Shown: positions 3,947-6,702 of the stretch, in pieces
How the letters are laid out: each line of letters starts with the position of its first letter
How positions within the stretch are numbered: the first letter of the stretch is position 1
Source: Candidatus Tantalella remota
GTDB lineage: Bacteria > Omnitrophota > Gorgyraeia > Tantalellales > Tantalellaceae
Direction: 5' to 3'
Assembly (NCBI GenBank): GCA_030765685.1
Contig: JAVCCB010000041.1
Location: forward strand, 75,549-139,548
DNA: 64,000 nt
Translations under genes and position numbers: made by a program
The notes under the pieces: model-generated
The model's database searches: none
Seen by the model: only the letters and a program-made list of their open reading frames with translations
Told to the model about the DNA's origin: nothing

Positions 3947-5845
3947 CTAGCTTTTACTCCGTATATCCCTCAGCAGCTCTATTGCGGGGACAAATGACGG
4001 GTCTGCTTCAAGGGCCCTAATGACCCATTTTTCCGATTCTAAGATCTGGCCGCCAAGAAGAAAGGCATAACCCAGGTCATAATAGGCCCGGGGCATTTCG
4101 GGATAAAGACGTGTTGCCTCAAGATACACCTTGGCGCCCGCTTGCAGCTCTCCCGCCCTCGTATAGACCGATCCAAGGTTTATAAGCGCGTCATACCCGT
4201 ACGGGTTCTCCGCGATAGCCTTACTCGCAAAAACAAGAGCCCTCTCCGGATCGTCACCTTTTGAGTATGCCTGGGAAAGAATGAGAAGCGCCTCGGAATG
4301 CTTAGGATTTATCTGGAGTACCCTTTGAAGATACCCAACACCTTCGGCCTGGTCCCCCGACATGAAAGCCGCAAAAGCCAGTCCCAGATAACCGTTATCA
4401 TAGGCCCTGTCCAGTTGAAGAGACTTCTTAAAATCACTTACGGCTTCCTCGGTCCTGCCCGAAGCAAGCGCGAGGCGCCCCTTTATGTACCAGGATTGCG
4501 GATTGTCCGGATCGTTCTTTACATATTCATCCATTATGTCCCGGGAAGAGTCCTTATCCCCGCTTTTTAGGGATGATACCGCTTTGTAATGCATCGCGGG
4601 TTTATCCTTCCCGGAGAAAGCAAGTACCCGGTCGCTAAATGCCTCGTCCTCCTGCCAGTAAAAGGTCTGGCTGCGGGTCGCGGCAGAATAGGATACCACT
4701 GCCCCCAACACAAGACATACAGCGAGTATTCTTCCCGCCAGCCTCCCATTTCTGTAAAGGAAAAGCAGCGTCAATGCCATGAAAAGAAACACACCGTAGC
4801 TTGACAGGTATACCCAATGTTCTCCGAAGACCTTAAAATATCCCGCTACCGATATGAACGGTAAAAGGGAAACTACATAAAACCCCGTCGCCATCAAAAG
4901 CAATCTCCGGTTGTCTCTCATAAGGACATACAAAATAAGTATCAGCACGCCTATGGCGCCGAAAACTAGATATCTTCCGTCGAAGATCATCCCGACCCTT
5001 CGCAAATACATCTCGGACGGAAACACCACCAGAGCCAGGGATTCCCCTATCATTCCAGCGTTGCGGGCTATATTCTCAAAAAAAACAGCGGGTTTAAAAA
5101 CAGTGATATGACCCGTGCTGAAATACACGCGATGAATAACAGCATAGCTAAGACAAACAATAAGATTAGGGATATGCCTTAAAAAGCTGAACCCGTAGCG
5201 TTTACGAAGCACCGTAAGATCGATCAGGAGCATCAGAAAAGGAAATATCAGTGCCGCTTCTTTGCTCAAAAGTGATAGGACTAAAAAACCTATGCTCGCC
5301 CAGAGCATAAAGGTCCTTTTCCTCTCCACGAAAAGAACGTAGAAAAGCATAAACAGGAAGCCGAACAAAAAGAACAAAAGGTCTGTTCTGCTTGATATGT
5401 ACGATACAGCTCCCGCGTGTATAGGGCTAATAACAAAAAAAAGAGCGGTTAAAAAAGATACGGATTTATCCTCCGAGAGCTTCATCGTAAAAACAAAAAC
5501 AAGTATCGCGTTCAGAAAATGCAGGACAACACTGGTGAGGTGGAACCCCGCGGGATCAAGCCCCCACATCCGGTAGTCCAGAGCATAGCTCAATATCTGA
5601 ACGGGCCTGTAATAGATCGTATAAGTGAATCCTGAATTGATTATGTCCTGTTTGAATATCTGGAAAGAAAGAAGAGGCGCGCGTATCAGAGGGTTCAGCC
5701 TGACAATATATTCATCATCCCAGACGAACCCCGCGTTCGAGACAGAACCGTAACAAACCGCGCAGGCCGCGAAAAGAAGGATGATGATAAAAAAATTCTT
5801 TTTCACTACTTCGATATCTGCTTTTCCTTTGAGTATTCTACACAT
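3947..5845 (-). CDS. TMTC/DUF1736-like GT-C glycosyltransferase-family membrane protein with C-terminal TPR repeats
   Basis: 632 aa. Multi-TM N-terminal half with FVWDDEYIV...YYRPVQILSYALDYRMWGLDPAGFHLTSVVLHFLNAILV (PMT/TMTC-like GT-C signature region). C-terminal third made of TPR-like repeats (...ASGRTEEAVSDFKKSLQLDRAYDNGYLGLAFAAF...). Only 8 bp separates it from the upstream pilin gene. Confidence 0.55.
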   Translation of the reverse strand: MCRILKGKADIEVVKKNFFIIILLFAACAVCYGSVSNAGFVWDDEYIVRLNPLIRAPLLSFQIFKQDIINSGFTYTIYYRPVQILSYALDYRMWGLDPAGFHLTSVVLHFLNAILVFVFTMKLSEDKSVSFLTALFFVISPIHAGAVSYISSRTDLLFFLFGFLFMLFYVLFVERKRTFMLWASIGFLVLSLLSKEAALIFPFLMLLIDLTVLRKRYGFSFLRHIPNLIVCLSYAVIHRVYFSTGHITVFKPAVFFENIARNAGMIGESLALVVFPSEMYLRRVGMIFDGRYLVFGAIGVLILILYVLMRDNRRLLLMATGFYVVSLLPFISVAGYFKVFGEHWVYLSSYGVFLFMALTLLFLYRNGRLAGRILAVCLVLGAVVSYSAATRSQTFYWQEDEAFSDRVLAFSGKDKPAMHYKAVSSLKSGDKDSSRDIMDEYVKNDPDNPQSWYIKGRLALASGRTEEAVSDFKKSLQLDRAYDNGYLGLAFAAFMSGDQAEGVGYLQRVLQINPKHSEALLILSQAYSKGDDPERALVFASKAIAENPYGYDALINLGSVYTRAGELQAGAKVYLEATRLYPEMPRAYYDLGYAFLLGGQILESEKWVIRALEADPSFVPAIELLRDIRSKS

Positions 5846-5853
5846 TTATATCA

Positions 5854-6183
5854 TCAATCCACAAGGTCATGGCCTTCAATGCTACAGGTAGGTTCGGCAT
5901 CTACGGGTGCAATAGTATAGGTACCGCCCGCTGGACAGACCGGCTGTCGCGCTATATATTCCGGGACAAGATCGTCCCATCCCGGTTCATCTCCGGTCTG
6001 TTTCCCTTCCCATACAGCCCAGGCATCTTTGCCATTGGCTATCTGACGGAGATTAGCTACACAGATATTCTCTCTCGATCTCATCCTAGCCTGAAGAAAC
6101 TGAGGTGTAGCTATGCCCGCCAAAAGACCAACTATGGCTACCACGACCATTATCTCTATTATCGTGAAACCTTTTTTATCCAT
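5854..6183 (-). CDS. type IVa pilin (prepilin with class III signal peptide)
   Basis: MDKKG/FTIIEIMVVVAIVGLLAGIA: short basic leader, G-1, F+1, E+5, hydrophobic alpha-1 helix. C-terminal CPAGGTYTI...C disulfide-loop-like region. Confidence 0.8.
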   Translation of the reverse strand: MDKKGFTIIEIMVVVAIVGLLAGIATPQFLQARMRSRENICVANLRQIANGKDAWAVWEGKQTGDEPGWDDLVPEYIARQPVCPAGGTYTIAPVDAEPTCSIEGHDLVD

Positions 6184-6269
6184 AGCTGTACCCCCTACAG
6201 CCGATAATTCAGGCCTATTAAATAACTATCATACATCGTATAAAAGAAAAAAGGCAAGACAAAGTATGC

Positions 6270-6326
6270 GCGGATGTAAAAGGCAAAAAGAAAGGGGACG
6301 ATCTTTTTCGATCGCCCCCTTTCTCC
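6270..6326 (-). terminator. rho-independent terminator downstream of the second pilin gene
   Basis: GC-rich imperfect palindrome AGGGGACGATC...GATCGCCCCCT around 6293-6325. On the transcribed minus strand it is followed by the T-rich run CTTTCTTTTTGCCTTTT. Confidence 0.5.
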
Positions 6327-6348
6327 TTTAGACTTGTCGAGCAACCCG

Positions 6349-6702
6349 CTACGGTAGCACGTGGTTGGCCACATCACATGTCGGAGTGGTACCCACAGCT
6401 CCAATCGTATAAGTACCTCCGGCAGGACAAACGGGTGTTCTTTTAATATAAGACGTCACCAGATCCGACATCTCTATATCTTCCCCCGTCGACATGCTAT
6501 CATCCAAAGCAAGCAGAGACTTCGCACCGTCAAACTGTTTCAGATTGGCGATACAAGCATTCGTCTGCGCTCTTTCACGGGCTTTCATGAAGTTCGGTAT
6601 AGCTATAGCAGCTAATAGACCTATAATTGCAACAACTATCATGATTTCAACAAGCGTAAAGCCCTTTTTACCTAACATTTTGCGTATCTTCATTTTTCTC
6701 AC
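6349..6702 (-). CDS. type IVa pilin paralog
   Basis: ...MLGKKG/FTLVEIMIVVAIIGLLAAIAIPNF. Same prepilin motif, and the same C-terminal CPAGGTYTI motif as the neighbouring pilin. Confidence 0.8.
   Translation of the reverse strand: MRKMKIRKMLGKKGFTLVEIMIVVAIIGLLAAIAIPNFMKARERAQTNACIANLKQFDGAKSLLALDDSMSTGEDIEMSDLVTSYIKRTPVCPAGGTYTIGAVGTTPTCDVANHVLP

Follow-up and report, generated by a model that had tools for sequence, protein, structure and literature searches.

A glycosyltransferase that combines a GT-C fold with tetratricopeptide repeats (TPRs) and serves as an accessory to a pilin is a known kind of system. In Pseudomonas aeruginosa group IV (Pa5196, PA7), the enzyme TfpW, which has 646 amino acids (aa), 11 transmembrane (TM) helices, a periplasmic DDX loop and a C-terminal periplasmic TPR domain, is encoded immediately downstream of pilA and adds D-arabinofuranose (D-Araf) to Ser/Thr residues of the pilin; its fold is of the GT-C type, for which ArnT was the best template, and its DDX motif is essential (bioRxiv 10.1101/2020.04.19.049825). 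The gene tfpO likewise lies directly after pilA (PMC11841053; bioRxiv 10.1101/2020.04.19.049825). A second described system is that of the metazoan proteins TMTC1-4, which are O-mannosyltransferases of cadherins and protocadherins in the endoplasmic reticulum, with 11 TM helices, a cytoplasmic N terminus and TPRs on the non-cytoplasmic side; the DD motif of the first extracytoplasmic loop is essential in GT-C enzymes, and bacterial TMTC-like proteins were mentioned in passing by Eisenhaber et al. (PMC7801869). Here, we analyse a gene for a 632-aa protein on a 64-kb stretch of DNA (64,000 nucleotides, called the window below) from the Omnitrophota bacterium Candidatus Tantalella remota, where it follows two pilin genes in a type IV pilus operon. 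We will show that its product is a TMTC-like GT-C protein whose gene is linked to type IV pilus genes in related species, and we will argue, more cautiously, that the pilins are its substrate.

All numbering is in window coordinates, and the pilus region is transcribed from the minus strand throughout. The elements on which the argument turns are the following:

3947-5845, minus strand: open reading frame (ORF) of 632 aa, starting 8 bp after the stop codon of pilin B
4646-5845, minus strand: GT-C (TMTC-type) transmembrane glycosyltransferase domain, residues 1 to ~400, with 11 TM helices and a predicted cytoplasmic N terminus
5714-5719, minus strand: codons of D43-D44, the catalytic 'DD' motif in the predicted first periplasmic loop, aligning with D52/D53 of TMTC1
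3947-4603, minus strand: predicted periplasmic TPR domain, residues ~415-632, followed by the stop codon; multiple Pfam TPR families
5854-6183, minus strand: pilin B, the second prepilin paralogue, 109 aa; N_methyl PF07963 (E 1e-7), TIGR02532
6349-6702, minus strand: pilin A, a prepilin of 117 aa from the GTG at 6702; N_methyl PF07963 (E 9e-8), TIGR02532
6278-6323, minus strand: intrinsic terminator downstream of pilin A, from RNA folding; GAAAGGGGGCGAUC-GAAAAA-GAUCGUCCCCUUUC, then a U tract

The original prediction, made by reading the letters alone, had placed the 632-aa ORF 8 bp downstream of the tandem pilin genes, and both the coordinates and the gap are borne out with the start codon as annotated. 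No clear Shine-Dalgarno sequence precedes the ATG at 5845, and the orthologues are ~8-10 residues shorter at the N terminus, so the true start, and hence the 8-bp gap, is not certain. In NCBI the protein is named only 'tetratricopeptide repeat protein'. Searches with Pfam and NCBIfam likewise recognize TPRs only, and residues 1-410 have no Pfam match even at E≤10. For the C-terminal third, which had been read as TPR repeats, the Pfam matches (TPR_2, E 6e-22, and others) and the helix pairs in the structural model (by DSSP) agree with that reading, and residues ~415-632 consist of six TPR pairs and a capping helix.

The N-terminal half, previously suggested to be a GT-C domain of PMT/TMTC type, does show GT-C similarity in profile searches. 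As TMTC reference we used 12 sequences from the alignment of metazoan TMTC1-4 N-terminal domains in the supplement of Eisenhaber et al. 2021 (PMC7801869), a published sequence alignment being taken because the PDB holds no TMTC structure. In hhalign, an alignment of 25 family sequences matches these 12 domains with a probability of 100 and an E-value of 2.1e-47 over 382 columns, which is the whole domain on both sides, and the target sequence alone gives a probability of 99.5. A hidden Markov model (HMM) of the 12 TMTCs finds the target at 91.2 bits and matches all 120 homologues that were fetched; the E-values of this local hmmsearch relate to the 120-sequence database, and the bit scores are the meaningful figure. 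When the N-terminal domains of 25 family members were scanned individually, PMT_2 was matched in eight (best E 4e-9) and PMT in four, and some of the 120 homologues carry a Pfam annotation as PMT or PMT_2, with DUF1736 (PF08409) in only one of them. The profile comparison of the family with ArnT gives no detectable similarity, and the family profile has no match among PDB sequences at E≤10, that is, sequence HMMs do not reach the solved GT-C structures. A tblastn search against plasmids returned one archaeal match, which is irrelevant here.

The AlphaFold2 model of the full-length protein, built on 60 homologues, has a pLDDT of 93.6 and a pTM of 0.93, and Foldseek matches it in the PDB to TPR proteins only, e.g. 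OGT and designed CTPRs. With the TM domain modelled alone (pLDDT 86.5), the top 37 PDB matches are all GT-C proteins, namely STT3, PglB, AglB, ArnT, Pmt4, DPY19, AftA and Emb. The GT-C superfamily is defined by a polytopic membrane fold (STT3/PglB, PMT, ArnT, ALG, Emb), an acidic DxD/DD/DE motif in loop 1 and a polyprenyl-phosphate-linked donor, and the polytopic fold and an acidic DD in the first extracytoplasmic loop are both present in the target. There is very little doubt that the 632-aa protein belongs to the TMTC-like branch of this superfamily. We call it specifically TMTC-like, and not merely GT-C, because the match to the TMTC profile extends over the whole domain while there is none to ArnT.

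The sequence motifs of the TMTCs are in part kept and in part missing or changed. Of the motifs that had been pointed out originally, FVWDDEYIV (with D43 and D44) and YYRP are present in the target, the latter at residues 78-81 within TIYYRP (YRP being Y79, R80 and P81), but 'HL..NILLH' turned out to be the family-consensus form, the actual residues 102-112 reading HLTSVVLHFLN. D43, D44, P81 and H102 are invariant in all 60 homologues, and Y79, R80, K195, E196, E342, W344 and Y346 are invariant within the orthologues. The HPxHxEAVxxxxGRxD motif is found as SPIHAGAVSYISSRTD; the GRAD motif of TMTC in the second extracytoplasmic loop (EL2) is SSRTD in the target and GRAD in the family consensus. 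Of the TMTC motif KE(T/Q)xxT in EL3, the KE is kept (K195-E196), and the EL5 motif has the form G-E342-H-W-V-Y346 (GEHWVY) as against AERxxY in TMTC. The His/Lys of the TMTC sequence SHKSYRP is absent from the corresponding TIYYRP.

Before residue 400, 11 long helices are seen in the model. The short loops rich in K/R (MCRILKGK, KLSEDK, ERKR, LRKRY..RH, RDNRR and YRNGRLAGR) are all on one side, and the DD, KE and EHW loops together with the TPRs are on the opposite face. On the basis of this positive-inside pattern, the N terminus is predicted to be cytoplasmic and the active site and the TPRs to be periplasmic, and the DD motif is thus placed in the first periplasmic loop, which was the topology that the original prediction had proposed to check.

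Next, we consider where the gene is found in other genomes. The survey covered 79 loci from GTDB species representatives, searched with the pilus proteins of the window and the prepilin motif. Four orthologues that were examined directly, with 37-54% identity, occupy the same slot, in the order GGDEF-pilT-MshEN-pilB-pilB-pilC-pilin(s)-gene-pilMNOP-secretin, and at one of these four loci the glycosyltransferase gene is inverted, still between pilin and pilM. Orthologues, at 36-85% identity, were found at 25 of the 79 loci, and all are from Omnitrophota (some labelled 'uncultured Planctomycetia'). Type IV pilus genes adjoin the orthologue in 24 of these 25 species representatives, so that the gene is not one that occurs at conserved non-pilus loci, and a pilin gene is a neighbour in 18. 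In 15 of the 25, one to three pilin genes are directly upstream on the same strand, and in one the pilin is 2 kb upstream; in two more (L016 and L041) the pilin is convergent and there is no pilM nearby, the gene staying with the pilT-pilB-pilC-pilin half. Since the same order recurs in many species, it cannot be put down to chance. A separate subfamily thus keeps its position at 36-55% identity, even through an inversion, and for this reason we hold with good confidence that the role of the protein is dedicated to the pilus system.

The other 54 loci, at ≤32% identity, are paralogues in other contexts, with the exception of three near a second, divergent set of pilus genes. At L071 (4566-9223 of that locus), which is from another Omnitrophota MAG, pilC is followed by two pilins in tandem, of 131 and 130 aa and with the ending ALCPVVGTYTDHVWP, and then by a TMTC-like/TPR paralogue of 774 aa, which starts 4 nt after the pilin stop codon and is 25% identical to the window protein. 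This is an independent second instance of a pilC-pilin-pilin-glycosyltransferase cassette. At L045 and L068, a divergent set of pilC and pilin genes is a few kb or less from the paralogue.

Concerning the two pilins of the window, it had been noted that they are paralogues with a common signal peptide and a common C-terminal CPAGGTYTI...C motif. This agrees with the prepilin N-methylation motif found in both (leaders ...GKKG/FTLVEIM and MDKKG/FTIIEIM) and with their alignment, in which they are 52% identical and end alike in CPAGGTYTI...PTC...H. For pilin A, the ATG at 6693 is a more probable start than the GTG at 6702, because its orthologues begin MKIRK.... The pilin A orthologues at other loci are 64-78% identical. 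Pilin B is missing from some related loci; the number of pilin genes before the glycosyltransferase gene at related loci is between 1 and 3.

The terminator between the two pilin genes was found by reading and folding the spacer; a consensus terminator scanner gave only chance-level sites and did not pick it up. It has a GC-rich stem of 14 bp, a 6-nt loop and a U tract, and its fold has a minimum free energy of -37.8 kcal/mol with a z-score of -5.3, none of 200 shuffled sequences being as good. A hairpin with a U tract stands directly 3' of the first pilin gene at all 14 orthologous loci that were checked (L008-L028), where it is kept as a structure and not as a sequence. Because this strong terminator follows pilin A, we read pilin A as probably the major pilin, abundantly expressed, and pilin B and the enzyme would then be a unit of lower expression. 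The arrangement is the same as in the pilin-accessory cassettes of Pseudomonas, in which the terminator after the pilin gene is thought to attenuate the expression of the accessory gene (PMC11841053).

The mature pilins are very small, with ~100-105 residues. In all 30 pilins that adjoin orthologous glycosyltransferase genes, Cys36, Cys78, Cys95 and His100 (mature numbering) of the globular part are invariant, as are Tyr71, Pro76, Pro79 and Tyr84. The Cys3-His set suggests a metal (zinc) site, or else a disulfide plus a free Cys/His. Such a Cys3-His site is not known to us to be common to type IV pilins in general.

On balance, we lean towards the enzyme glycosylating the pilins, a substrate that is assigned on the strength of gene position and of analogy with known systems. 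In the proposed mechanism, the prepilins would first enter the inner membrane, their small globular domain facing the periplasm. The TPR domain would then capture the globular domain of the membrane-anchored pilin, and the GT-C site (D43/D44, D155, K195/E196, E342/H343/Y346) would move a sugar from a polyprenyl-phosphate-linked donor to pilin hydroxyl groups before the subunits are assembled. The first pilin gene would be strongly expressed, and the terminator would leave pilin B and the enzyme to read-through or to a weaker internal promoter. On this reading, a pilin would be the acceptor and a lipid-linked sugar the donor. Candidate acceptor residues in the 30 pilins are T83 and T85 of the mature protein, the threonines on either side of the invariant Tyr in GGT-Y-T, where Ser or Thr is present in 83-87%; positions 48, 75 and 91 are further candidates.

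Several observations weigh against pilin glycosylation. No Ser or Thr of the pilin globular domain is invariant among the 30 pilins compared. In place of the Arg of AERxxY, to which binding of the donor phosphate has been ascribed, the target and the family consensus both have His. The DUF1736 loop (PF08409) and the DNP/DW motifs are not found, the TM7-TM8 loop EL4 (~247-290) having ~45 residues and a gapped alignment; it is because this loop is missing that we speak of a TMTC-like protein and not of a canonical TMTC. Neither the window nor the examined flanks contain a gene for a polyprenyl-phosphate-sugar (GT2) synthase, a flippase, sugar biosynthesis or DprE1/2. Furthermore, at six of the 25 orthologous loci pilMNOP is downstream and no pilin was found upstream within the available flank (the full 7 kb at L013 and L058, 1.9 kb at L010, and 0.4-1.6 kb at L011, L025 and L062), so the linkage is to the pilus system and not strictly to pilins. 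Finally, the closest homologue in Candidatus Omnitrophus magneticus, one of the 25, is not at a pilus locus.

Three of these six loci speak for the strongest alternative, in which the enzyme serves the pilus machine, either by glycosylating PilQ, PilN/O/P or minor pilins or as a TPR scaffold for the assembly of PilMNOPQ. At L013, L058 and L010 the gene is directly before pilMNOP with no pilin nearby, and the genes upstream are housekeeping genes of fatty-acid and phospholipid synthesis (plsX-fabH-fabD). In addition, no separate TPR pilotin of the PilF/PilW/Tgl type was seen in the cluster, and the TPR domain does have sub-threshold matches to PilW (41 bits) and Tgl (27 bits). These scores, however, are weaker than those to unrelated TPR proteins and far under the cut-offs of 154 and 225 bits, and the pilotins known so far are lipoproteins of the outer membrane, not polytopic enzymes of the inner membrane. 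Moreover, at L016 and L041 it is the pilin-pilC-pilB half with which the gene stays, with no pilM nearby, and the distant paralogue at L071 directly follows two pilins. Since L013, L058 and L010 keep the gene with the pilMNOPQ half and L016 and L041 with the pilin half, it travels with either half of a split pilus operon. We consider a role confined to the machine to be unlikely, although it deserves to be taken seriously.

Rather more doubtful is that the protein is a general periplasmic O-glycosyltransferase with many protein substrates and a scope like that of PglL, its place in the operon being historical or reflecting co-regulation only. The size of the family speaks for it, as an exhaustive HMMER search with the TM domain gives 63,931 cluster representatives at E≤1e-3, and so do the several paralogues in varied contexts within Omnitrophota genomes and the ability of TPR domains to bind many partners. 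Within this large family, however, the pilus-linked clade is small and sharply separated, with 16 representatives at 196-373 bits and the next at 181 bits, and its retained position at 36-55% identity, inversion included, is not what such a scope would lead one to expect.

The acceptor could also be something other than a protein, namely a lipid or glycan that is modified for passage of the pilus or for surface properties. ArnT modifies lipid A, and the Emb/Aft enzymes modify arabinan; the fold search returns ArnT, AftA, AftD and EmbB, and the lack of an invariant acceptor Ser/Thr in the pilins would be natural in that case. But the sequence is specifically TMTC-like without profile similarity to ArnT, and both kinds of characterised enzyme in which this fold carries a C-terminal TPR domain, the TMTCs and TfpW, act on proteins, which makes a non-protein acceptor very improbable.

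The original prediction had also allowed for a TPR membrane protein with the role of a pilotin or assembly factor. That the target is such a protein and devoid of catalytic activity is hardly tenable: Pfam and NCBIfam do recognize only TPRs in the target, but these are fused to an inner-membrane enzyme domain in which the TMTC/GT-C catalytic-site motifs, in the form that they take here, are invariant among the pilus-linked orthologues, and this would be unexpected for a dead enzyme. The sub-threshold scores to PilW and Tgl speak against it as well.

Pilin glycosylation, the reading that we retain, is set in a pilus operon that runs along the minus strand from the GGDEF/HAMP gene through pilT, the MshEN gene, two pilB genes, pilC, pilin A, pilin B, the 632-aa ORF and a spacer to pilMNO, a pilP-like gene and the start of pilQ. 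The remaining features of this operon are as follows:

13134-14549, minus strand: GGDEF/HAMP protein, beside pilT
12036-13097, minus strand: pilT; T2SSE/MshEN annotation in syntenic loci
11553-12002, minus strand: stand-alone MshEN-domain protein, 149 aa (Pfam MshEN)
9816-11543, minus strand: pilB-type ATPase 1; T2SSE/MshEN annotated in syntenic loci
8096-9808, minus strand: pilB-type ATPase 2; T2SSE/MshEN annotated in syntenic loci
6862-8082, minus strand: pilC (Pfam T2SSF)
3306-3946, no strand: non-coding spacer of 640 bp from the glycosyltransferase gene to pilM, a mosaic of short (7-14 nt) tandem repeats
2280-3305, minus strand: pilM (Pfam PilM_2, E 1e-48)
1589-2260, minus strand: pilN (weak Pfam PilN match)
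960-1592, minus strand: pilO (Pfam PilO, E 4e-19)
593-1039, minus strand: pilP-like gene, upstream of the pilQ start
1 to ~532, minus strand: start of the pilQ secretin gene, which runs off the window; the N terminus matches the secretin of locus L001

The upstream pilus genes (6862-13097) are 60-96% identical between loci. Each of the two tandem PilB-type ATPases consists of MshEN and T2SSE domains, and these ATPases, the extra MshEN protein and the adjacent HAMP-GGDEF diguanylate cyclase are all kept in related loci. MshEN domains are receptors of c-di-GMP, and control of pilus extension by c-di-GMP therefore seems likely.

The spacer at 3306-3946 contains, as read on the minus strand, cgtatct four times, agcatcc/gcatct, gatgact twice, agtattt five times, aaatccaaatgaca three times and the inverted copies of these, ttggatttt. 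It was also considered as a structured RNA, which was ruled out since its fold is not significant (z -1.4) and Rfam has no family in the spacer, or indeed anywhere in the window. The equivalent spacer is much shorter in related loci, with 125-540 nt.

The remainder of the window holds mreBCD-pbp2-rodA, the dcw cluster and housekeeping genes. Every gene examined is on the minus strand, and all 2-kb bins have a negative GC skew (-0.09 to -0.27), consistent with one replichore with a strong gene-strand bias. Two further ORFs join different domains. The one at 33414-41558 (minus strand) is a single frame of 2714 aa that combines a radical SAM domain (~636-801), a guanylate kinase (~1495-1678) and an ARMT1-like damage-control phosphatase (~1659-1955), an unusual fusion with large stretches without a Pfam match. 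The one at 63179-63946 (minus strand) encodes 255 aa and fuses part of a ParA/MinD-like AAA_31 domain with a glycogen-binding module of the type AMPK1_CBM/CBM48.

Attachment to host or prey cells is the function suggested for the type IVa pili of Omnitrophota (PMC10066038). These are uncultivated, mostly ultra-small bacteria, and a glycosyltransferase fixed in the pilus operon predicts that their pili are glycosylated, which would affect adhesion, phage recognition and the structural modelling of the fibre. The bacterial TMTC-like family, with its ~64,000 cluster representatives, is essentially uncharacterised and would gain a concrete, testable substrate and a link to TfpW, the one characterised GT-C/TPR enzyme that acts on a pilin. 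The gene was found described in none of the Omnitrophota papers searched, and this clade, its fixed place in the Omnitrophota pilus operon and the TMTC assignment of a pilus-linked enzyme appear to be undescribed in the literature searched.

A bolder proposal, which we put forward only tentatively and regard as improbable, is that the protein is a true bacterial counterpart of the TMTCs, placing single hexoses from polyprenyl-phosphate-mannose or a similar donor onto the conserved Thr-Tyr-Thr strand of the unusually small Cys3-His pilins. TfpW would belong to the same family, and the module would be ancient and mechanistically continuous with cadherin O-mannosylation. If this were true, TPR-guided GT-C glycosylation of adhesive surface proteins would be a module common to bacterial pili and metazoan cadherins, and the glycosyltransferase would belong to the pilus operon constitutively and throughout the phylum, and would not be a strain-variable accessory for phage or immune evasion.

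It remains to compare the protein with the described systems in detail. The PilF/PilW/Tgl pilotins resemble it in that their TPR domain is encoded within a cluster of type IV pilus genes or close to one, and at the TPR level there is weak similarity, but they are outer-membrane lipoproteins of ~250 aa without a TM enzyme domain, and the identification is rejected by the scores, which are 40.8 bits for TIGR02521 against its cut-off of 154 and 27.5 bits for Tgl against 225. The PMT enzymes (GT39; fungi, animals, actinobacteria) differ in that the target lacks MIR, carries TPRs and has no PMT match itself. The PglL/TfpO enzymes (PilO; Neisseria, P. aeruginosa group I, Acinetobacter) resemble the target in being polytopic inner-membrane proteins with the active site predicted for the target, too, at the periplasmic face, and they act there on membrane-anchored pilins. 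They belong, however, to the unrelated Wzy_C/O-antigen-ligase family, have no TPRs and transfer preassembled oligosaccharides linked to undecaprenyl diphosphate, and an enzyme of this type is ruled out by the absence of Wzy_C (Pfam and NCBIfam at E≤0.01 for the whole protein, Pfam at E≤10 for residues 1-410).

By sequence comparison, the closest family is that of the metazoan TMTC1-4 (CAZy GT105). The 11 TM helices, the N terminus inside and the TPRs on the non-cytoplasmic side are alike, and the motifs in common are FVxDD, YRP, H..N..LH, HPxHxEAV....GRxD, KE and PF...(A/G)E(R/H)xxY.PS.G. The target is bacterial, however, and a polyprenyl rather than a dolichyl donor is therefore expected, while the acceptor would be a pilin and not a cadherin domain.

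Judged by what it would do, the closest analogue of the target is TfpW, with which the comparison was made by its published description only. The two are alike in size (646 and 632 aa), in architecture and in the position of the gene after a pilin. The TfpW motif YX6PFX7P is not matched, the target having Y323-x5-P329-F330 with no Pro at +8. TfpW depends on the DprE1/DprE2 pathway for D-Araf, whereas neither the 64-kb window nor the flanking regions at the related loci encode DprE1, DprE2 or a DPPR synthase. The most marked difference lies in the genomic setting: in Pseudomonas, tfpW is strain-variable and apart from pilMNOPQ, whereas the gene described here is fixed phylum-wide in its place, with the pilin genes on one side and pilM on the other.

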